A program made the translations under genes and the position numbers. The notes under the pieces are model-generated. The model searched no databases and was not told the origin of the DNA. It saw nothing but the letters and a program-made list of their open reading frames with translations. A stretch of 64,000 nt of DNA from Escherichia phage vB_EcoM_CRJP21, in the sequence record OQ708376.1; one strand, 5' to 3'. Below, piece by piece: positions 29,607 to 58,801 of this stretch (positions are counted from its first letter, which is position 1; each line of letters starts with the position of its first letter).

Positions 29607-29999
29607 ATGACTGAATCTGAACTACGTGAAATGATAGATTTCATTTATGAAATGGTACAAGATAAAAATAACATCAATACAATTGCATCTGGTCCAAGAC
29701 AAATTGGTAACCAAATAACATATTCTTTGTCCTTATGGTTACACCCGTGCATTAAGGTTGATTGTTTGTATTTCCGTCCTGATATTGATGCTTATTATTT
29801 TGTCAATCATGATGCATTAATGAAACCACATAATCGTCCAGTTGATGATAACTTTGTGACGCACCCATTTTACCTTGCTGATTCCGAAGAGGATGAGTTT
29901 CAAAAGAACACAACGTTAAGCCCAGGTGAAATTTGCATCCCTTACACACTAAAAGATAAAATGATTTACATCACAGAAGTTATGAAAACATGCTGGTAA
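29607..29999 (+). CDS. Hypothetical protein (130 aa); possible divergent FFQxS-family member (SEEDEFQKNTTL)
   Basis: ORF with RBS TAAGGAAA. Confidence 0.5.
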   Translation: MTESELREMIDFIYEMVQDKNNINTIASGPRQIGNQITYSLSLWLHPCIKVDCLYFRPDIDAYYFVNHDALMKPHNRPVDDNFVTHPFYLADSEEDEFQKNTTLSPGEICIPYTLKDKMIYITEVMKTCW

Positions 30000-31507: not shown

Positions 31508-31682
31508 GACATTTGATGAGTGGTTTAATCTACACTATAATATAAATGCAGCAGATATATACTATTTTAAGCTTGAATTGTATATATCATTGCGTAACCC
31601 AATTGAGTACTATAACAACATTATCAATTGTGATGATTTTGGTACATATTTTAGTATAGCCGTTATGGATATTAAGAGATGA
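31497..31682 (+). CDS. Hypothetical protein (61 aa)
   Basis: ORF overlapping the upstream gene by 11 nt. Confidence 0.4.
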   Translation: MQPKTFDEWFNLHYNINAADIYYFKLELYISLRNPIEYYNNIINCDDFGTYFSIAVMDIKR

Positions 31683-31858
31683 CACATGAAGAATGGATGG
31701 CAATGATGAAAAAACGTTATGACCAGTTTGGAAATGGATTTATTGATGGTCATTTCGATATTTTACGAGACAAATATAAGTTCGAATCATATGTACTAGA
31801 TGAGAATGGAAATCGTTGGTTCATCTATGAGCTTGCGGTTAGAGACAAAAAAATATAA
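31679..31858 (+). CDS. MTHEEW mini-protein family, copy 1 (59 aa)
   Basis: MTHEEWMAMMKKRYDQFGNGFIDGHFDILRDKYKFESYVLDENGNRWFIYELAVRDKKI; not in the ORF track (below length cut-off). Confidence 0.5.
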   Translation: MTHEEWMAMMKKRYDQFGNGFIDGHFDILRDKYKFESYVLDENGNRWFIYELAVRDKKI

Positions 31859-31884: not shown

Positions 31885-31955
31885 GCTTTCTTTACAGAAG
31901 AATAAATGAAACACTTAATTGAACTGGATACATAAAATGACACACAAAGAATGGA
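31885..31955 (+). repeat. About 71 bp direct repeat, copy A (degenerate upstream module plus start of MTHEEW gene)
   Basis: GCTTTCTTTACAGAAGAATAAATGAAACACTTAATTGAACTGGATACATAAAATGACACACAAAGAATGGAT is about 90% identical to 32404..32474. Confidence 0.7.
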
Positions 31956-32113
31956 TAGAGTCACTAAAATATAAACATGATCATTTTGGATTTGGTATAC
32001 GCCAAGGCCATTATGATGTTTTGAACGATAAAAAAACGTTCGAATCATTGGTTTTGGACGAAGATTCCAACCACTGGTTCATCTACGAGCTTGCTATTAG
32101 AGATAAAAAATAG
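31937..32113 (+). CDS. MTHEEW mini-protein family, copy 2 (58 aa)
   Basis: MTHKEWIESLKYKHDHFGFGIRQGHYDVLNDKKTFESLVLDEDSNHWFIYELAIRDKK; track 31919 start trimmed to the conserved ATG. Confidence 0.5.
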   Translation: MTHKEWIESLKYKHDHFGFGIRQGHYDVLNDKKTFESLVLDEDSNHWFIYELAIRDKK

Positions 32114-32118
32114 TAAGA

Positions 32119-32454
<336 letters not shown>

Positions 32455-32455
32455 A

Positions 32456-32638
32456 ATGACACACGAAGAATGGATGTCCAAACAGCATAAAGAACATGAC
32501 TGCTTTGGGAATGGCATTCGTCAGGTACATTATGATATATTAAGAGATGAAAATCTTTTCAGGTCATATGTTTTGGATACCAGAAAACCCTGGTTTATAT
32601 GCGAACTGGCATTTAGAAAGTCAAATAATCAAAACTAA
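32456..32638 (+). CDS. MTHEEW mini-protein family, copy 3 (60 aa)
   Basis: MTHEEWMSKQHKEHDCFGNGIRQVHYDILRDENLFRSYVLDTRKPWFICELAFRK; track 32438 start trimmed to the conserved ATG. Confidence 0.5.
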   Translation: MTHEEWMSKQHKEHDCFGNGIRQVHYDILRDENLFRSYVLDTRKPWFICELAFRKSNNQN

Positions 32639-32654
32639 ACAAGGAATACAAAAA

Positions 32655-32873
32655 ATGGAAACAACTTTATTAGAAGTTATTCAATCATTAAAACCTGAAG
32701 ATGAGGTTCAAGTACTACTACATGGTTATCGTGTAAAAGGTACTGTGGTTTTAGTCAATGATACAACATTGGTTATTACAGAAACAAACCCATATGATAG
32801 TAATCAACTTGCCAATATCCATATCGATATCACTGGAATTATTGGTGTCGGTGTATCTAAAACACTTGCATAA
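32655..32873 (+). CDS. Hypothetical protein (72 aa)
   Basis: Track 32547..32873; start moved to ATG 32655 behind AAGGAA, since the upstream part overlaps copy 3. Confidence 0.45.
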   Translation: METTLLEVIQSLKPEDEVQVLLHGYRVKGTVVLVNDTTLVITETNPYDSNQLANIHIDITGIIGVGVSKTLA

Positions 32874-32893
32874 ATCATTAATTCATTATATAA

Positions 32894-33022
<129 letters not shown>

Positions 33023-33026
33023 AATA

Positions 33027-33103
33027 CGGGGTATAGCACAATTGGATAGTGCAAGAGAATTCTAATCTCTAGGTTGGGGGTTCAAGTCCCTCTACCTCGG
33101 CCA
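33027..33103 (+). tRNA. tRNA-Arg (anticodon TCT)
   Basis: Acceptor CGGGGTA / TACCTCG; D-stem GCAC/GTGC; anticodon stem-loop AGAGA-ATTCTAA-TCTCT; T-loop TTCAAGT; CCA encoded. Confidence 0.8.
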
Positions 33104-33126
33104 ATTTTAATTAAAGGTTAAAAACC

Positions 33127-33453
<327 letters not shown>

Positions 33454-33461
33454 AAAAAAAG

Positions 33462-33875
<414 letters not shown>

Positions 33876-33935
33876 CTAAATAATTCAGTACTGAGGATAT
33901 TAATATGTTTAAAGATGAACGTCCAGATTTGTAAA

Positions 33936-34066
<131 letters not shown>

Positions 34067-34069
34067 TAC

Positions 34070-34229
<160 letters not shown>

Positions 34230-34244
34230 CAATGCGAGGTATAA

Positions 34245-34502
<258 letters not shown>

Positions 34503-34510
34503 GAATTTAA

Positions 34511-34912
34511 ATGAAAAAGAATGACTTGATCAAAATGCTTCAAGAAATTGACGGCAATCCAGAGATTGTTATTTGGAATGGATACGTCGATGATTATATG
34601 AACATCGAAAAAGGCTTGACTAAAATCACTCTAGTCAAAGAAACCGAACAGTTTCTTCAGGGTGCATTAGAGCACGAATGGTGTGAACGTAACAATACAT
34701 TCGACATTCCAGAAGACCAACGAACCAAGATTGCAGAACGTGCTAAAGAACTGCATAAGAAACGCGAATACGATTTCCAGAACCCATATGTCACTGAAGA
34801 CGAATTCAATCGCTGGTACGGTAAAAAGAAATTGACAAAGTATGTCCTTTCACCTAAACTACGTGGTAAGACTTCACTTGGTGTATTCAACGCCGCAGAC
34901 TTAAACTACTAG
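34511..34912 (+). CDS. Hypothetical protein (133 aa); paralog of 34925..35140 at the N-terminus
   Basis: N-terminal MKKNDLIKMLQEIDGNPEIVIW matches MKAKDLIKILQNNPEADILIH in the next gene. Confidence 0.5.
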   Translation: MKKNDLIKMLQEIDGNPEIVIWNGYVDDYMNIEKGLTKITLVKETEQFLQGALEHEWCERNNTFDIPEDQRTKIAERAKELHKKREYDFQNPYVTEDEFNRWYGKKKLTKYVLSPKLRGKTSLGVFNAADLNY

Positions 34913-34921
34913 CGGGTATTA

Positions 34922-35471
<550 letters not shown>

Positions 35472-35531
35472 TACAACCGACAATGACGAAAGAACAGTTA
35501 TCAACATTTATCAACGCAGCATTAGATAAAA

Positions 35532-35563
<32 letters not shown>

Positions 35564-35615
35564 TACCAAGCAGCTTGAAGAACTTTGTAGTGCTGCACCT
35601 ATGCCGACTCTTGGC

Positions 35616-35716
<101 letters not shown>

Positions 35717-35728
35717 TATCTTACTTCT

Positions 35729-35818
<90 letters not shown>

Positions 35819-35824
35819 TACACT

Positions 35825-36250
35825 ATGACATACAACATTGTTAAAATGGTGAACTATGTATTAAAAAACAACGCATGGTCACTGCATGATGTACAATTAG
35901 AAGATATTGGTGAAGTTAGAGTATTTTGCTATGATCCAGATTTGAATCAAACCACAGATTTGAGTAAATGTTTTAATATTTTTCTTGGTTATGAATTCAA
36001 TAATCATTTTTATTCATTTGATGTGTATTTTGAAAAAGTTATATTCAGAAGTTATGAATGTGATAATGAAGATTATGATTATGATGATGAATCAATTGAA
36101 TTGAATGTTAACGATATTGATACTGAAGAAAAATTCTTCCAGTACTGCCTCCTTAACGACACATTAGGATTAACATTTGAGGACATTAAAGCTATACTTA
36201 AAGTTCAAAAGTTGATTCCAGAAGAGGTACTAAATCCATTAAATGACTAG
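35825..36250 (+). CDS. FFQxS-motif paralog family member
   Basis: Motif instance TEEKFFQYCLLNDTLGLTFEDI. Confidence 0.6.
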   Translation: MTYNIVKMVNYVLKNNAWSLHDVQLEDIGEVRVFCYDPDLNQTTDLSKCFNIFLGYEFNNHFYSFDVYFEKVIFRSYECDNEDYDYDDESIELNVNDIDTEEKFFQYCLLNDTLGLTFEDIKAILKVQKLIPEEVLNPLND

Positions 36251-36608
36251 TCTAATAGTACGTATAATGCAAGATGTTTGTAATAACCTTTATACAGGCA
36301 ATTTTGACGATCCGAACATAAAAATATTATGTTATGATGGTTTTACAATGGTACATCCATCCTATTCAAATAATATCTACGTAGCATATACAGGTGAAAA
36401 TCTATTGTATCAATTTGATATATATAGTACAATGACAAAGATAATTTTGGATGCCTCTAAACCAGCAATCTTTATTGCTTCTCATGATTACCATTACACT
36501 GAAGAATCACTATTTCAGTACTCAATGATTAATGACATTGGTGGGTTGACATTGGATGAGGTTAATGCTATACTAGCTGTCTCACGTTTGGTTAAAACCC
36601 ACAATTAG
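36243..36608 (+). CDS. FFQxS-motif paralog family member
   Basis: Motif instance TEESLFQYSMINDIGGLTLDEV. Confidence 0.6.
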   Translation: MTSLIVRIMQDVCNNLYTGNFDDPNIKILCYDGFTMVHPSYSNNIYVAYTGENLLYQFDIYSTMTKIILDASKPAIFIASHDYHYTEESLFQYSMINDIGGLTLDEVNAILAVSRLVKTHN

Positions 36609-36617
36609 GAGATTCAT

Positions 36618-36809
36618 ATGTTCTGGAATTTATTATGCTTGTTTGGTCGTACATTGGTTCTTGCTATTATTCATACACCTGGTATTCGTAATTATGTTTC
36701 TTATGAATTTAAGAAAAATTATCACAACAATACTGAAGTTCGTACAACTAAGATGTGCAAAGACTTCAAGGTAGATGTTCCACCATTCAAGAAGTACGAG
36801 GATGAATAA
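36618..36809 (+). CDS. Small membrane protein (63 aa)
   Basis: Hydrophobic N-terminus FWNLLCLFGRTLVLAII; RBS TAGGAGA. Confidence 0.5.
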   Translation: MFWNLLCLFGRTLVLAIIHTPGIRNYVSYEFKKNYHNNTEVRTTKMCKDFKVDVPPFKKYEDE

Positions 36810-37093
36810 TGGAATTCATTGTTGCACCTGATGAACTTAAAACATTCACGTTCAGAGATAATAACAATTATCCTTATACAAATCATTCATTGAATTCATT
36901 ACATGTTATTGCAATCATTGCATCTGAATACAGGGATAATCCATGTATTGATTTTAAAACCACTGATGGCGAATATACATGGGTGATCCCAAAAGATAAA
37001 TATAGTTATCAAGGGGCAGTAGAAATTCGTGACTCGATTCTAAAACAAATCGAAGATGGAAATACTCATCCTAAACTAAACACTCAGTACTGA
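36809..37093 (+). CDS. Hypothetical protein (94 aa)
   Basis: ORF with start overlapping the upstream stop (TAATG). Confidence 0.5.
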   Translation: MEFIVAPDELKTFTFRDNNNYPYTNHSLNSLHVIAIIASEYRDNPCIDFKTTDGEYTWVIPKDKYSYQGAVEIRDSILKQIEDGNTHPKLNTQY

Positions 37094-37106
37094 AATCGTT
37101 TAACCC

Positions 37107-37160
37107 GATAGCTTCTAGTCAGTACTGATTCCTCCTTATGTATAGAAGCTATCACTTTTT
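37107..37160 (+). terminator. Intrinsic terminator (long hairpin)
   Basis: GATAGCTTCTA ... TAGAAGCTATC 11 bp stem with a 25 nt loop, followed by ACTTTTTT. Confidence 0.6.
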
Positions 37161-37249
37161 TACGTATAATGATATTACCCTCAAATTCATTATATTCGTT
37201 ACCCTCTAACAGTATCTTTTTATTCCTCTTGGATGCTGTAATTTAGAAG

Positions 37250-37309
37250 TTGACTTTTTAACTTCTACTGTGTTATACTTAAGGCTGATTCGATGAATCG
37301 GCCTTTTTT
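37250..37309 (+). promoter_or_regulatory. Promoter followed immediately by a terminator-like hairpin
   Basis: TTGACT, 18 bp spacer, TATACT; then GGCTGATTC-GAT-GAATCGGCC hairpin plus TTTTTT directly upstream of the gene start at 37328. Confidence 0.45.
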
Positions 37310-37327
37310 CTTATATAGGTGAATGCA

Positions 37328-37747
37328 ATGAGTTATTTGTTTACTTTAATTGATAAGTATGTTGACATTGTATACCGTCAAGTTTGTAGTGATACGTTTG
37401 AAACAAAAAACCCAATTAGAGATGGCATTTTTGATGTTGTCGTTGGATCATTTTTGAATGGATACACCGAGACATTATACAACAGTAATAATATTTTTAT
37501 TTCAGTTCAATCCAGACATACATCAGACTATGCTGTTAGCATTGATATTTGGGAAAATAATATAGAAATAGATATAACGGAACATACTAACATTCATGTT
37601 GATGATACATTTAATCAATTAACTGAAGAAATGTACTTGCAGTTGAATTTTGTACATAATCTTACAAATATCAGTTATGATACATTAAGGAAAATATGTT
37701 TTCTTAGTGGGGTGATCCGTAGTAATATGAGTAAGGATGGGAAGTGA
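37328..37747 (+). CDS. FFQxS-motif paralog family member (divergent)
   Basis: Motif instance TEEMYLQLNFVHNLTNISYDTL; track start 37319 is GTG, so ATG 37328 behind AGGTGA was used. Confidence 0.5.
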   Translation: MSYLFTLIDKYVDIVYRQVCSDTFETKNPIRDGIFDVVVGSFLNGYTETLYNSNNIFISVQSRHTSDYAVSIDIWENNIEIDITEHTNIHVDDTFNQLTEEMYLQLNFVHNLTNISYDTLRKICFLSGVIRSNMSKDGK

Positions 37748-37748
37748 A

Positions 37749-38165
37749 ATGTTAAAAATTCCACCTAAGTCGTTAACACATCTTATTGAATGTGGTGTAA
37801 TATTTTCCGAAGGTGATACCTCATCATACACATTGGTCGATGAGCCTTATAATTTTTCATACCAATCTTATAAAAATAATTCTAAAATTTCTTGTAGATA
37901 TGCTGAAAACATATTAATAGATGTTTCGTTACATAATGTTCCGAAATTTTACATTGATATCTTTGGTGATTCTTTGACAATTCGAACATATGATTATTTT
38001 ATTAATAAAGACCTCTTGAGTCTTCCAATTGAACATGATACTATAGATTCAGAGATGTTCTTTCAACTATCAACAGTTTACGATTTACAGGGTTTAACTG
38101 TTGAGCAGTTGAATGGAATATTTGAGATTTCACGAAACATACGAAGCAGGAATAAAAATGTCTAA
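37749..38165 (+). CDS. FFQxS-motif paralog family member
   Basis: Motif instance DSEMFFQLSTVYDLQGLTVEQL; start ATG 37749 coupled to the upstream stop. Confidence 0.55.
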   Translation: MLKIPPKSLTHLIECGVIFSEGDTSSYTLVDEPYNFSYQSYKNNSKISCRYAENILIDVSLHNVPKFYIDIFGDSLTIRTYDYFINKDLLSLPIEHDTIDSEMFFQLSTVYDLQGLTVEQLNGIFEISRNIRSRNKNV

Positions 38166-38568
38166 TATTTTAAATGAAAAAACAGTTGATGTTGTTATTG
38201 GTGTTCTTAACACCGCAACTTCATTTCAGAAGAAACACAGTGTTGTATACTTTGGTGAAGATTGTTGGCTGAACTATACTAATAATTCGTTTATAATTCG
38301 TGTAGAGGCTGATGATATTGGATTAACCGTTCAGGTAGGATGTGCCAAAACTGACAAACAAATCACTGTCATTGTTGATAAACTTACGTCTTCTTTTTAT
38401 GATAGTATAGATGATTGTGAACACTATAGTTCAACATTTTATGATACAGAAGAAGAACATTTTATGGAAAGTACTGTTCAAGAGTTAGCTATTCCATATA
38501 AGCTAATGAAAGCAGTGAGTGATTTAATTTTAAAATATAAAAAAATAGGAGTTACTAATGCAATTTAA
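38158..38568 (+). CDS. FFQxS-motif paralog family member (divergent)
   Basis: Motif instance TEEEHFMESTVQELAIPY; start moved to ATG 38158 behind AGGAA. Confidence 0.5.
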   Translation: MSNILNEKTVDVVIGVLNTATSFQKKHSVVYFGEDCWLNYTNNSFIIRVEADDIGLTVQVGCAKTDKQITVIVDKLTSSFYDSIDDCEHYSSTFYDTEEEHFMESTVQELAIPYKLMKAVSDLILKYKKIGVTNAI

Positions 38569-39951: not shown

Positions 39952-40293
39952 ATGAACTTAAGTTCAACAATTCAGTACTTGAGCAGTAACTTCGAGAAAA
40001 TTATTTCTCGCGGTGGGATGATTGTACACCCAGAAACAGAGGAAATGTACATCATTGGATTTGATAAAAATTCTTATGATCAAGTACTTGTAATTTCCAA
40101 GTTAGAAAGTTATAATGAAGTTGTTCAGTTTTGCTGTACCGAATTTGGTATCTATATTAAAGACGCTGAAACTAATACAATTTCGCATTATTTTTACCAC
40201 ACACTGATGGGTACTAAAGACTTCGGCTTGAAGTTCGATGATTTAGTACAATGTCACTATATGTTTAAAACCTTCCCAGCTAGTGGGCATTAA
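39952..40293 (+). CDS. Hypothetical protein (113 aa)
   Basis: ORF with start overlapping the upstream stop (TAAATG). Confidence 0.5.
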   Translation: MNLSSTIQYLSSNFEKIISRGGMIVHPETEEMYIIGFDKNSYDQVLVISKLESYNEVVQFCCTEFGIYIKDAETNTISHYFYHTLMGTKDFGLKFDDLVQCHYMFKTFPASGH

Positions 40294-40306
40294 GGAGTAT
40301 ATCAAT

Positions 40307-41095
40307 ATGAGCAACATTTTCTTCAAAACTATTTCTTTCAAAAAAGCATCTTACTCCTACGCCTACGTTGATGGTAAAGTGCTTAATATTGTACTGGATG
40401 GTGTTGACGTACCAGTTGAATTTAAAACACATGAAGAAGCAGTTGAAGGTGCTAAAGAATTGAATTCAATTCTTAATGGTGAAGTAAGTCAAAAACAACA
40501 TGTAAAATCTGATTTAGATGTACTTTTGGAAAAAATCAAAACTGGTGAAGTATTAGAAATTTTAGACAACTGTAATGAAAAACTTCGTAATGTAGTTAAT
40601 AATGTTCGTGACCAGATTCAAGAAAAAGCACTAGAGCAAGCATTCAAACATGTATCCAAGAATGCTGAATCTCGTATTGACGGTATGGTTAAAAATCTTG
40701 ATGATGTACTATCTCATCTCTTTACTAAAGAATACGAACAAGAAGTTGAAGAAGAACCAGTAAAAGAAACTAAAAAAGAAAAACGTAGCTTTGGCTCAGG
40801 TGATGATGTGTTTGGTTTTACGAATGTCCGAACAAGTGCAGATGAACCAAAAGAAATTAGTGAGATGCTCATTGGTGACATGACAACTAAGCAGCTTCGT
40901 AATGAAATTGACAAGTTTGTAACTAGTTGTATCAAATCAGAACGTGCACAAAGTATGTTTAAAAGCATTAGTGAGAACTTTGGTCCAGAAGCAACTGAGC
41001 AGGCACTAACTGCATTTAAAGAATTGATTTATAATGTAGCCATTAGCAATCCAGATAAAACACTTGAAGAAGTTCTACGTGACAATTTCAAATAA
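40307..41095 (+). CDS. Hypothetical acidic protein (about 262 aa)
   Basis: Track 40283..41095; start moved to ATG 40307 behind TAAGGAG. Confidence 0.55.
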   Translation: MSNIFFKTISFKKASYSYAYVDGKVLNIVLDGVDVPVEFKTHEEAVEGAKELNSILNGEVSQKQHVKSDLDVLLEKIKTGEVLEILDNCNEKLRNVVNNVRDQIQEKALEQAFKHVSKNAESRIDGMVKNLDDVLSHLFTKEYEQEVEEEPVKETKKEKRSFGSGDDVFGFTNVRTSADEPKEISEMLIGDMTTKQLRNEIDKFVTSCIKSERAQSMFKSISENFGPEATEQALTAFKELIYNVAISNPDKTLEEVLRDNFK

Positions 41096-41137: not shown

Positions 41138-42292
41138 TTATGCGTTGTAACCAACTATTACGACTGAGCAGTCAAGCGGTTCTACTACTTTAAGAATTAC
41201 ATTATCATCTTCATCCACTTGTATTTCACTATGAACTACATGATTGTCTGAAGAATATAATTGAACTTGTGGTAGTGCTTTACCATGTTCAGTTACTGGA
41301 ACTGAGATAGAGTACATAGAGTCTTCACCGAGAACCCACTCACTTAAAGTATATTCTTTATGGAAAGGAGTAGTATGCAGTGTTTTTCCGATTATACTCA
41401 AAGAAACAGGTAAATTATCAGTTTGATACACAGTAATATTACCTTCTGCGTCTACAGAAAGATCTACACCAACTTGATATAAGTCACCACTGTATGCTTG
41501 AAGTGCTAAGTACTGTCCACGATCATGAACATCAAATGGAACAACCGCAGAAAATACACCTTCCGAAACAGGTTCAAATTGGGATAGAAGAACTGATGTA
41601 ACAAAATCAATATCCTCACCACTTTCAAGAACATCAAATTCCACCACTTTAGTGTTATAATATGGAGAAGTGAGCGTAGCAGTACCTTTCCCTGATTGTG
41701 TGATAACATCAACTGGAATTGTAAATGCATCATTAACAAATTGGGTAGTAAAGTATTCTGTCCCGTCTGGTAATACGATTGTTATTACCATACCGTTAGT
41801 ATCAATTTCTGAACCAGTGTTGAATAATTTACCACTAATTGAGTCATTACCAACAAATACTGGTGAAATGAGAATATTATCTATATCACGATCTATAATA
41901 CCACATTCAGGTGTATACATATGATACAAGGTTTGTGAACTACCTAAAATTGTTTTATGTAGCATAAATTTATATACAAATCCAGTATCAGTTTCTTGTG
42001 GCTCTTCAGAATATCCACGAACAAAGAAACAATTTTTATTAATTTCACTTAATAGTTGGTCATTAGTTTTATTGTAATTTAATAGATAACCTTTATTATC
42101 TTTAGTTGTTATTTGTACTTTACGATATATTATATTAGTTCTTGGATCAACTAAATCATATAATCTATGGCTTCTTTGGCGATAGATTCTAATATTTTTT
42201 AGTCTAGTTCCATCGTTGAGGATTGCACCATCAACAACATAACCACATTCACCAAACTTATAGCGTCCAGCCGCAGCAATTGACCTTGACAT
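41138..42292 (-). CDS. Hypothetical beta-rich protein (384 aa); the only clear minus-strand gene in the window
   Basis: Long minus-strand ORF not overlapped by any plus-strand gene; convergent with the upstream gene across the bidirectional terminator; candidate divergent promoter on the minus strand around 42300..42345. Confidence 0.6.
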   Translation of the reverse strand: MSRSIAAAGRYKFGECGYVVDGAILNDGTRLKNIRIYRQRSHRLYDLVDPRTNIIYRKVQITTKDNKGYLLNYNKTNDQLLSEINKNCFFVRGYSEEPQETDTGFVYKFMLHKTILGSSQTLYHMYTPECGIIDRDIDNILISPVFVGNDSISGKLFNTGSEIDTNGMVITIVLPDGTEYFTTQFVNDAFTIPVDVITQSGKGTATLTSPYYNTKVVEFDVLESGEDIDFVTSVLLSQFEPVSEGVFSAVVPFDVHDRGQYLALQAYSGDLYQVGVDLSVDAEGNITVYQTDNLPVSLSIIGKTLHTTPFHKEYTLSEWVLGEDSMYSISVPVTEHGKALPQVQLYSSDNHVVHSEIQVDEDDNVILKVVEPLDCSVVIVGYNA

Positions 42293-50437: not shown

Positions 50438-50465
50438 TTGACATAAGATATCAGTACTGTATAAT
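50438..50465 (+). promoter_or_regulatory. Sigma-70-type early promoter with CAGTACTG spacer palindrome
   Basis: TTGACA-TAAGATATCAGTACTG-TATAAT-GTTT. Confidence 0.6.
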
Positions 50466-52473: not shown

Positions 52474-52674
52474 ATGTTTACTTTATATCTCGCAGTAGTT
52501 CTCACCAATGGTGAAATCACTCGTACTATTGGTGAAGGTGTATATAAAACACCAGACCAGTGCTACTCTGCCACTCATTGGCCTCGCGATAGTGGGGATG
52601 AAACTCGCACTGAATTCAAATGCATGAAAGTAAAAGGTGATTTTGTTAACCTTAAGGTTATCGAGGCGAAATAA
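52474..52674 (+). CDS. Small protein with hydrophobic N-terminus (66 aa)
   Basis: Track 52417..52674; start moved to ATG 52474 behind TAAGGCGAA. Confidence 0.45.
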   Translation: MFTLYLAVVLTNGEITRTIGEGVYKTPDQCYSATHWPRDSGDETRTEFKCMKVKGDFVNLKVIEAK

Positions 52675-53192
52675 TGGATATTAATGAGTTGTTGAAATTA
52701 GTGTTTAATCGTGAACGCCGCGATACAAGACCAATTGAATATCAAGATGTGATACGCATTGAAACTGATTTCTGTTATGGTAAAACAACTCATGACCTTT
52801 TGAATCTCTCTGGAAAACGCTATGCTGATGTTTGTTTTTCAGAGAGAAGTGATGGTTCAGAAATAACGAGTACTGATATTGTTTGTTACGCACGCAGTGC
52901 TGATAAATCTTATGAAATAGAACTTATATATTCCCCTAGTTCTAAAACAAATCATCACCGCCATATTTTATATGATGTTTACACACCACCTGGTATTGCT
53001 GAATATTTTGTTATTGATTATAGTACTGAAGAAAATGTGTTTCAACAAAGTTTGATTCATAACTTTGAGGTGAATGATCCATTAGTACCAAAGTTGTTCA
53101 AACTACTTGACACCATCGATGTTGATTTTGAATTTGTTATGTGCATTAGAACTTCTTTATTCAATGAATTCATGGAACTTTTTAATATATGA
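52674..53192 (+). CDS. FFQxS-motif paralog family member
   Basis: Motif instance TEENVFQQSLIHNFEVNDPL. Confidence 0.55.
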   Translation: MDINELLKLVFNRERRDTRPIEYQDVIRIETDFCYGKTTHDLLNLSGKRYADVCFSERSDGSEITSTDIVCYARSADKSYEIELIYSPSSKTNHHRHILYDVYTPPGIAEYFVIDYSTEENVFQQSLIHNFEVNDPLVPKLFKLLDTIDVDFEFVMCIRTSLFNEFMELFNI

Positions 53193-57999: not shown

Positions 58000-58221
58000 A
58001 TGAAATATATAGTACTTGTACTGATATTATTCAGTACTGTTGTAAGTGCTAAACAAAAAGAATATGTTAAATGTATAAATTATGAAGAGAAATATGTTGA
58101 AACATATAAAAAAAGTATAATTAAAAACGTTTCGATTACTAACAGAGCAACAATCATTGTACTTAAAAATGGGTTAATTATGCTATATAAACCACACGTT
58201 AAATGTGAAATTATTAATTGA
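58000..58221 (+). CDS. Small secreted protein (73 aa)
   Basis: Signal peptide MKYIVLVLILFSTVVSA. Confidence 0.5.
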   Translation: MKYIVLVLILFSTVVSAKQKEYVKCINYEEKYVETYKKSIIKNVSITNRATIIVLKNGLIMLYKPHVKCEIIN

Positions 58222-58228
58222 GGAAATT

Positions 58229-58801
58229 ATGAATCGTAAAGGTCGTTTTAAAGTATCAAAAAAGAACAAAAGTTCTAGGTTTAAACCTATTGTTTTAACA
58301 GTTAAATCTAACAAAGATTTAACTGCACTTAGTAAAAAGATAATTTCATCTAAGATTGAAGTATCATACGTAAATTCATTAAAATATATGAATGTCAAAC
58401 CACTGGACCAACTCATTTCACTTATATTTGAACGTAATGATTTTGAGATATCAGTAGATGATTATAGAGCCTATAATGCTGGTTTCATTAATGTTACTTG
58501 TAATAAAAAACTAACTGAGTTGGAAAATTTGTCATGTATAATAAATCTAGATAAAGGTGTTGTGAAGTACCATTTTGTACATTTCACTAATATCAATAAT
58601 GGAATGGGTGTACAATCCAGACCTATAGTGCCTACGTGTGATGTTACTAAATTAGCAAAGCTCAATGATGAAGAATATTTTCAAGAAAGCATTGTAACTG
58701 AGCATTTAGATGATATAATAGCTACTTACAAAGAATGCATATGGGTGTTGAATGCTATAAAACCTAAATTGTGTTTAATGAATATTGTTCGTGATTTATG
58801 A
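58229..58801 (+). CDS. FFQxS-motif paralog family member (divergent)
   Basis: Motif instance NDEEYFQESIVTEHLDDI; start moved to ATG 58229 behind TGAGGAAA. Confidence 0.5.
   Translation: MNRKGRFKVSKKNKSSRFKPIVLTVKSNKDLTALSKKIISSKIEVSYVNSLKYMNVKPLDQLISLIFERNDFEISVDDYRAYNAGFINVTCNKKLTELENLSCIINLDKGVVKYHFVHFTNINNGMGVQSRPIVPTCDVTKLAKLNDEEYFQESIVTEHLDDIIATYKECIWVLNAIKPKLCLMNIVRDL

Follow-up and report, generated by a model that had tools for sequence, protein, structure and literature searches.

A five-gene array of a large paralog family beside the tRNA island of an Asteriusvirus jumbo coliphage

The five-gene array and its family

Within a 64,000-nucleotide stretch of Escherichia phage vB_EcoM_CRJP21 (OQ708376.1; the whole stretch is referred to here as the window), positions 35,825 to 38,568 carry five genes of the FFQxS protein family, directly downstream of a tRNA-Thr gene. 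There is nothing exceptional about the array, which is a conserved component of a very large and uncharacterized paralog family. As had been proposed in a preliminary description of this DNA, the five open reading frames (ORFs), designated F1 to F5 and starting at 35825, 36243, 37328, 37749, and 38158, were found at these coordinates, all on the plus strand, and both ARAGORN and Rfam placed the end of tRNA-Thr 16 nt from the ATG of F1. The five had been described as a single array; the members are real, but the layout is 2 + 3, with two nonfamily genes, o63 and o94, and a 225-nt spacer between F2 and F3. This intergenic region carries two terminator-like hairpins, and o63 and o94 match phrog_28948 and phrog_30132, both PHROGs without assigned function. 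Another member, 33522, was located inside the tRNA island as described, between tRNA-Arg (33027-33103) and tRNA-Ser (33976-34065) and flanked by sigma-70-like promoters at 33463-33490 and 33872/33941. The label of a "second" array had to be abandoned: the window has 21 family members in approximately seven groups, and a related whole genome has 60.

The 6 kb around the array matched the Asteriusvirus jumbo coliphages PBECO4, 121Q, G17, phAPEC6, JP4, and Sharanji with 94 to 98% coverage and 96 to 99% identity, which places the window in the PBECO4/121Q/phAPEC6 group of these phages. The window (33% G+C) is colinear, at 98 to 99%, with 285 to 348 kb of the 352-kb EC22.5-2 genome (OR845138.1). 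The ORF sets comprised 265 ORFs for the window and 966 ORFs of at least 60 aa for EC22.5-2. Gene order was compared with that in the Asteriusviruses JP4, ELP-22, 121Q, ph0011, and phAPEC6 and, for other genera, in Klebsiella phage Muenster (Alcyoneusvirus) and Salmonella phage Munch. CMSTMSU was dropped as a comparison genome, its record being marked unverified and its ORFs apparently frameshifted.

Family membership was tested with a profile hidden Markov model (HMM) built from ten members at 17.6 to 25.2 kb alone and run against the window ORFs. The five array genes and 33522 were recovered with the E-values given in Table 1, and the same model also found 30603 and 52674 and, more weakly, 58205. 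A second-iteration HMM scored the five array genes at 4e-15 to 3e-27. Because the first HMM was built without the tested genes and recovered all five, the assignment is not circular. In EC22.5-2, 60 family ORFs were identified among the 966 scanned, on one strand and all with the motif, as also holds for the 21 members of the window; the family thus accounts for roughly a tenth of the ORFs in a complete Asteriusvirus genome (∼60 genes). A word-indexed protein search gave 34 close relatives; 164 clusters (50% identity) at an E-value of ≤1e-3 came to light only when 1.84 billion representative proteins were searched exhaustively with a profile. The proteins are 105 to 230 aa long, most of the 150 listed cluster matches falling between 110 and 200 aa. 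The family is specific to RaK2-like jumbo phages.

The signature of the family is T-E-E-x-[YFL]-F-Q-x-S-[TL]-[VI]-x-D. Over 180 homologs, its core residues were conserved at 91% (E), 97% (E), 99% (F), 91% (Q), and 92% (S); the mean column identity of a 149-sequence family alignment was just 9%. The pattern [TSN]-E-E-x-Φ-F-[QM]-x-S, approximately 30 to 35 residues from the C terminus, was assigned to all five genes and to 33522, the F3 copy (TEEMYLQLN) being degenerate, with L replacing F and N replacing S. The codons used at the invariant residues differ among members (CAA/CAG; AGT/TCA/TCT/TCG), and therefore the constraint acts on the protein. It was judged exceedingly improbable that a role at the DNA or RNA level, or gene conversion between the paralogs, maintains the motif instead, for example because it serves as a site of recombination or regulation akin to the 8-nt palindrome CAGTACTG. 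Short direct repeats (families D5 and D7) do coincide with the motif, the palindrome (26 sites in the window versus 0.68 expected from shuffles) sometimes lies over motif codons (in F1, F-Q-Y: TTC CAG TAC TG), and a replacement tract in F1 of 121Q breaks just upstream of the motif. However, the codons vary freely, the motif is kept in 180 representatives with ∼15% overall identity, and the palindrome is absent from the motif in most members. A divergent subtype with the motif S/A-[ED]-E-E-D-E-F-Q-K-[NR]-T was also observed, at 29607-29999 in the window and, as the copy beside tRNA-Ser that the window lacks, in phAPEC6 (L007 3827-4210) and 121Q (L003 4645-5016).

Database searches gave little annotation. 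PHROGs splits the family among 17453, 35192, 24027, 34619, and others, all without assigned function. The five array genes had no match in Pfam, where only scattered single matches occurred among 149 members, and the family proteins had none in NCBIfam. A profile search of the PDB with the family gave a best E-value of 0.18, with nothing above threshold, and BFVD matches were solely to uncharacterized proteins of UB, CBB, GAP32, fHe-Yen9-04, and RaK2. One of the 149 family representatives matched the Pfam domain RecQ-1-like_HTH (PF21220) at 3.7e-12, which could be either a fusion that hints at a partner related to nucleic acids or a sequence included by chance. Three other leads were dropped: a MutS_IV match of 23407 was weak and under the Pfam cutoff; the likeness of E-x-x-Y-F-Q-x-S to the tobacco etch virus protease site ENLYFQ/S fails on spacing, and no sign of a 3C-like protease was found; and a reading as a PCNA-interacting-protein (PIP) box or beta-clamp motif did not fit the pattern. 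The literature on PBECO4, 121Q, phAPEC6, CBB, RaK2, UE-S1, and Sharanji mentions paralogs in general terms; the literature searched contains no description of the family or of its motif and fold.

The AlphaFold2 model of F2 (mean predicted local distance difference test score, 90.9; predicted template modeling score, 0.85) has a helix at residues 4 to 15, five strands, a helix at 87 to 96 that carries the motif, and a last helix at 104 to 114. No solved fold matched this model. The predicted architecture of the family would be a hypervariable N-terminal helix and beta-meander followed by a constant helix-loop-helix, with the motif on the first of these helices. The isoelectric point (pI) is 4.1 to 5.0 in 17 of the 21 window members.

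Table 1. Features of the array, the tRNA island, and the remaining family members in the window. HMM, E-value with the ten-member model, followed by the second-iteration value where given.
Feature	Coordinates	Strand	Description
tRNA-Thr (tgt)	35735..35808	+	ARAGORN; Rfam RF00005, 67.4 bits; last gene of the sole tRNA island
F1	35825..36250	+	141 aa, pI 4.1; motif TEEKFFQYC; HMM 2e-4; phrog_17453 at 7e-58
F2	36243..36608	+	121 aa; motif TEESLFQYS; HMM 5e-11, 3e-27
o63	36618-36809	+	Nonfamily; no family HMM match
o94	36809-37093	+	Nonfamily; no family HMM match
F3	37328..37747	+	139 aa; alternative GTG start 37319 (HMM 1e-3), second iteration 6e-18; phrog_35192
F4	37749..38165	+	138 aa; motif DSEMFFQLS; alternative ATG 37737 (HMM 4e-10), second iteration 5e-20; phrog_17453 at 1e-11
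F5	38158..38568	+	136 aa; motif TEEEHFMES; alternative ATG 38113 (HMM 3e-5), second iteration 4e-15; phrog_24027
Island-embedded member 33522	33522..33875	+	117 aa; motif TEEEYFQMS; HMM 4e-7, 1e-22; phrog_34619
Putative sigma-70-type promoter	35415..35442	+	TTGACA-16-TATAAT; 12/12 consensus match
Terminator-like hairpin	37107..37162	+	11-bp stem then CACUUUUUU; minimum free energy (MFE) -17.2 kcal/mol, z = -5.1
Putative promoter-like site	37250-37279	+	TTGACT-18-TATACT; 100% conserved in JP4 and phAPEC6
Second terminator hairpin	37281-37305 + U-run to 37312	+	MFE -14.6 kcal/mol, z = -4.5
Upstream members, first group	17665, 18859, 19310, 19722, 20128, 20496, 20951	+	Family HMM
Upstream members, next groups	23407, 23946, 24781; 29607, 30603, 31103 (to 31507)	+	Family HMM
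Solitary members	52674-53192; 58205-58801	+	Family HMM
Remaining tRNA island (32141..34225)	Gly 32141-32213; Ser 32933-33022; Arg 33027-33103	+	ARAGORN, Rfam
Remaining tRNA island, continued	Ser 33976-34065; Met 34070-34148; Asn 34153-34225	+	ARAGORN, Rfam
Promoter module TTGACTAAATA(G/A)TTCAGTACTG	33463, 33872, 33941 (33463..33969)	+	Repeat family D4; exact pattern matches
MTHEEW genes	31679-31858, 31937-32113, 32456-32638, 33127-33291, 33288-33452		Repeats D1-D3 are their shared 5' ends

Age and allelic variation of the array

The order tRNA-Thr-F1-F2-o63-o94-F3-F4-F5-o148 was identical in JP4, ELP-22, 121Q, ph0011, and phAPEC6, and the copy number of the array was constant across the Asteriusviruses examined. 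The 16-nt spacer between tRNA-Thr and F1 was itself identical in JP4, 121Q, ph0011, and phAPEC6. Outside the genus, 15 to 48 kb of the window corresponded in gene-by-gene order to a 32-kb stretch of Muenster, where the positional orthologs of the family were 25 to 48% identical (30% for F5) and the neighboring genes mostly 40 to 73%. The tRNA island of Muenster occupies the same slot with almost wholly different content, including two HNH endonucleases, and an HNH gene and small ORFs separate its last tRNA from the downstream family array. Within the window, no pair of paralogs was more than 38% identical, and therefore no recent duplication has occurred. The reciprocal best pairs were F1-F2 (30%, 4e-13) and F5-33522, with F4 related to F2 and F1. 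Together, these comparisons indicate that the array is ancient, positionally fixed, and stable in copy number.

Variation within the array took another form. Compared with JP4, the region was 99 to 100% identical save for F2, which had only 72 to 81% nucleotide and 73.5% amino acid identity and a synonymous divergence (dS) of 0.70 versus 0 to 0.12 in its neighbors; against the divergent allele, the dS of F2 was 0.70 to 0.98. Across 36 phage records, the F2 alleles fell into two classes, of ≥97% and 66 to 75% identity. In 121Q, the middle of F1 alone was replaced (69 to 76% nucleotide identity within 99% flanks), the tract stopping just upstream of the motif. The amino acid identity to ph0011 was 41% for F3, 56% for F4, and 65% for F5, versus 95% for o63 and o94, and these two genes kept 95 to 100% identity across relatives although the flanking F genes diverge. 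The ratio of nonsynonymous to synonymous divergence (omega) was 0.2 to 0.7 in the diverged F-gene comparisons and 0.04 to 0.27 for neighboring genes. The ends of the replacement tracts coincided with gene boundaries or lay shortly before the protein motif, and not at the repeated module described below for the tRNA island. The data support that the array varies by exchange of deeply diverged alleles, as whole genes or segments, together with faster protein evolution, rather than by duplication. JP4 (L001 9012-9597) and ELP-22 (L002 8606-9191) both have a divergent F2 allele and, at the F1/F2 junction, a 224-bp insertion that encodes a 71-aa ORFan with no PHROG match.

The tRNA island and the spread of the family

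The Rfam scan of 29 to 41 kb found seven tRNAs and nothing else, and Sharanji and EC22.5-2 have the same seven tRNAs, no others, in one 3.8-kb island. This region had been proposed to be a recombination and insertion hotspot, which the comparisons bore out: close relatives differ there in HNH genes, tRNAs, copies of a small gene family (MTHEEW), and one member of the FFQxS family. In JP4, ph0011, and Muenster, the tRNA genes are interspersed with genes for HNH endonucleases; none was found by an HNH scan of the window island ORFs 33127, 33522, 34245, 34511, 34925, 32239, and 32547, the other island ORFs being short. The variable family member (phAPEC6 gp092c/121Q gp130; motif ADEEDEFQKRT) lies beside tRNA-Ser, is bounded by a repeated promoter module, and is absent from the window; weak family-HMM matches at its position suggest that it is present too in JP4, ELP-22, and ph0011.

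The promoter module, TTGACTAAATAGTTCAGTACTG, bounds the island cassettes, and homology breakpoints fall there. Those at 33893/33894, 33933/33953, and 33974 were inside or at the edge of promoter modules, of which each Asteriusvirus relative fetched had 2 to 5 copies, always at cassette junctions. The member 33522 is itself a cassette with modules on both sides. The modules look like recombination joints of the island cassettes. Apart from its island copies, the module was seen in the window at 50438 alone, and the boundaries of the five-gene array lack it. In the synteny comparison that had been proposed as a check, the cassette edges in the island coincided with repeated promoter modules, and the array had one gene order and copy number in every Asteriusvirus examined.

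The preliminary description had further held that co-location with tRNAs may explain how the family expands. This was not borne out, as most members lie far from tRNAs, no enrichment near tRNAs was observed, and there are no recent paralogs. In EC22.5-2, 9 of the 60 members were located no more than 5 kb from its sole tRNA island and 51 were beyond that distance; 12.6% of random placements of the island gave at least 9 nearby members. The largest field in that genome, at 57,087 to 85,036, holds 35 members in adjacent arrays of 3 and 32 on the plus strand with no tRNA nearby, additional members occur at 98.8, 138.9, and 152 kb, and all others are in the region matching the window. The first ten upstream members of the window are 7 to 14 kb from any tRNA. 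Across the window, Munch, and Muenster, the flanks of tRNA clusters were family genes in 6 of 23 cases, compared with 43 of 200 (21.5%) regionally (P = 0.37).

It was considered quite unlikely, on these figures, that the tRNA island, as a hotspot, gives rise to new family members or multiplies existing ones, with arrays growing at tRNA boundaries. The island is indeed highly plastic, with HNH endonucleases in the relatives, tRNA swaps, and extra cassettes such as the module-bounded gp092c/gp130, and the genes immediately after tRNA-Arg, tRNA-Ser, and tRNA-Glu in Munch belong to the family. Set against this are the 51 distant members and the tRNA-free 35-gene field, the lack of enrichment by either measure, the constant copy number of the five-gene array across the genus, and the lack of recent paralogs. 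This particular array was not encountered at unrelated, tRNA-free positions, whereas the family as a whole does occupy them. For the family as a whole, hotspot-driven expansion appears largely refuted, and the causal interpretation would be marginally right at most. The simplest reading is the reverse, in which tRNAs accumulated in a field of family genes: tRNAs, HNH endonucleases, and promoter-bounded cassettes would have been inserted into a dispensable or permissive field that was already full of them.

Several further observations concern the island. The place of tRNA-Arg(tct) in the window is taken by a tRNA-Leu(taa) in 121Q (L003 3173-3254), ELP-22 encodes one more tRNA-Gly (L002 4834-4909), and CMSTMSU has a tandem tRNA-Thr (L004 8702-8855); the anticodon of the second tRNA-Ser was called as act in 121Q and EC22.5-2 and as gct in the window. 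Interleaved with the tRNA genes is a second small paralog family of 54 to 60 aa, with the N terminus M-T-H-[EK]-E-W-[MI] (MTHEEW; phrog_10970). Its 54-aa gene is present as three tandem copies of 165 nt in phAPEC6, 121Q, and ph0011, compared with two in the window, and this family is tied more closely to the tRNA island than the FFQxS family is. The tRNA-Met gene and a 133-aa ORF at 34511-34912 (window 34066-34912) are shared with Munch (L006 12005-12562) at ∼78% nucleotide and 76.7% amino acid identity; other genes common to the window and Munch are 23 to 50% identical, and the pair looks like a laterally exchanged tRNA-plus-gene module. The palindrome CAGTACTG, with sites at, e.g., 33477, 33886, 33955, 35163, 37085, 37120, and 50452, occurs within the spacer of the promoter module; at 35160, it forms part of a longer palindrome of 14 nt, ATTCAGTACTGAAT, and the terminator hairpin at 37107-37153 has it in its loop. 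It could be an operator or recognition site.

Transcription, proposed function, and related systems

Transcription signals around the array are consistent with two units, which the host sigma-70 RNA polymerase would transcribe early. The first would run from the promoter at 35415 through small ORFs, tRNA-Thr, F1, F2, o63, and o94 to the terminator at 37107-37162. The second would start at the promoter-like site at 37250-37279, overlapping the second terminator (37281-37312), and continue through F3, F4, F5, and o148 onward; 37250 to 37312 would form a composite terminator/promoter joint ahead of F3. The promoter at 35415 lies in a stretch of ∼600 nt (35140-35735) that has no ORF over ∼37 codons and is 89 to 100% conserved in relatives. 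Two short ORFs (∼36 to 37 aa) are present in it just upstream of tRNA-Thr, spurious minus-strand ORFs are annotated there in records, and it has no Rfam match.

The family would act in the cytoplasm as a repertoire of proteins that bind or inhibit those of the host or of its defences; it would be an arms-race gene family in which the variable beta-sheet gives specificity and the constant helical module serves as a shared scaffold or partner contact. This reading was favored because the variable sheet with constant helices, the acidity, the nonvirion status, the allelic polymorphism, and the lineage-specific expansion all fit it.

The nonvirion status was weighed against a further alternative. 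In T4, the genes of the internal head proteins IPI to IPIII are hypervariable and lie near the tRNA cluster on the map, and the prohead proteases of T4 and phiKZ cleave after Glu. The FFQxS proteins might correspondingly be internal head or ejected proteins, with T-E-E as a prohead protease cleavage site: they are small, acidic, hypervariable paralogs that adjoin virion genes (40283-41095 and 41138-42292 encode virion proteins in phAPEC6 and JP4), and the near-invariant Glu-Glu resembles that cleavage rule. This possibility appeared very improbable, as orthologs of the window family were undetected among the 62 proteins of the phAPEC6 virion. That mass spectrometry list includes gp077 and gp078c, whose genes lie just downstream of the array, and none of gp079 to gp148, the range with the orthologs of 17.6 to 38.6 kb of the window; it also has nothing between gp037c and gp077, the estimated (unmapped) range of the orthologs of 52674 and 58205 (PMC7247149). 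Moreover, the motif lies two-thirds along the protein, at the start of what is confidently predicted to be a packed helix, rather than in an N-terminal targeting peptide, and cleavage at that site would leave fragments of only ∼30 aa.

Several points weigh against the binder repertoire with early expression. Promoter-like sites are not over-represented in the region (57 found versus 65.7 expected), and therefore the early timing rests on a few perfect matches. The literature on this phage group contains no transcript timing and no experiment on the function of the family. Omega was below 1 for every gene, so that positive selection was not demonstrated. The high dS of the swapped alleles reflects exchange of old alleles and not fast evolution in place. 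Mass spectrometry can miss virion proteins that are small and of low abundance. The structure was modeled for F2 alone, the other members being aligned, and T-E-E-E also resembles a helix N-capping box, so that the conservation of the motif may be partly structural and not that of a partner interface.

On balance, the best explanation as a whole, with a probability of approximately 0.6, is an old, fixed array of a large RaK2-like family, transcribed in early sigma-70 units and contributing to a repertoire of host or defence binders. The weakest step is the functional one, an early cytoplasmic repertoire of such binders; taken on its own, it is tentative and would sooner prove wrong than right. 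An elaboration that seems unlikely is that the ∼60 genes form a combinatorial anti-host or anti-defence repertoire, in which the beta-sheets would recognize different targets and the motif helix would dock all of them on one partner (a host protease, a chaperone, or a phage hub). Such a system would be a phage counterpart of the poxvirus families that combine a variable domain with a constant adaptor, and the dimorphism seen in F2 would be kept by frequency-dependent selection.

The closest parallel for the island is the shuffling mediated by promoter-early stem-loop (PeSL) elements in the hyperplastic regions of T4-like phages (Arbiol et al. 2010, PMC2839356; Comeau et al. 2014, PMC4122927). 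As in those regions, conserved modules are separated by blocks of small, early ORFan genes, and a short repeated regulatory module stands at the cassette junctions, where, in the tRNA island, indels and replacements between close relatives end. A composite terminator/promoter joint is also present at 37107-37312 but is unrepeated. PeSL elements consist of a terminator stem-loop followed by an early promoter; in contrast, the island module is a promoter with an 8-nt palindrome in its spacer and no upstream stem-loop, and the genes swapped here belong to one huge paralog family rather than being unrelated ORFans.

Homing endonucleases provide a second comparison. T4 SegB acts in a tRNA region rich in homing endonucleases, and the annotation of a gene in the Muenster island notes its similarity to TflIV, an HNH endonuclease of T5. 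As in the tRNA regions of T4 and T5, free-standing HNH genes occur among the tRNAs (JP4, ph0011, and Muenster) and the tRNA content differs between close relatives; unlike in those regions, the scanned window island ORFs have no HNH match. Such endonucleases explain the flux of the island, not the family arrays. The multigene families of poxviruses and of African swine fever virus are lineage-specific expansions in large viruses, and the FFQxS family resembles them in having tens of tandem, fast-diverging paralogs that make up a sizeable fraction of the genome in one lineage, with a presumed role in host interaction. It differs from them in fold and motif, in showing no sign of recent "accordion" changes in copy number, and in the positional conservation of its arrays between genera. 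With T4 IPI to IPIII, which are hypervariable, injected, and active against restriction, the family shares small size, acidity, fast divergence, and deep allelic polymorphism between close phages; it differs in that it was undetected in the virion, that no N-terminal targeting peptide was identified, and that there is no relation in sequence or fold.

The findings correct an appealing causal story, in that tRNA hotspots do not appear to drive the growth of the family, and they suggest that promoter-bounded cassettes undergo shuffling of the PeSL type in the tRNA island of RaK2-like jumbo phages. Approximately one-tenth of the genes of 350-kb coliphages that are candidates for therapy belong to one uncharacterized family with a near-invariant signature of five residues. 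As an apparently ancient, positionally fixed, nonvirion family diversified by allele exchange, it is now a tractable target, with one motif that can be mutated and whole arrays that can be deleted.

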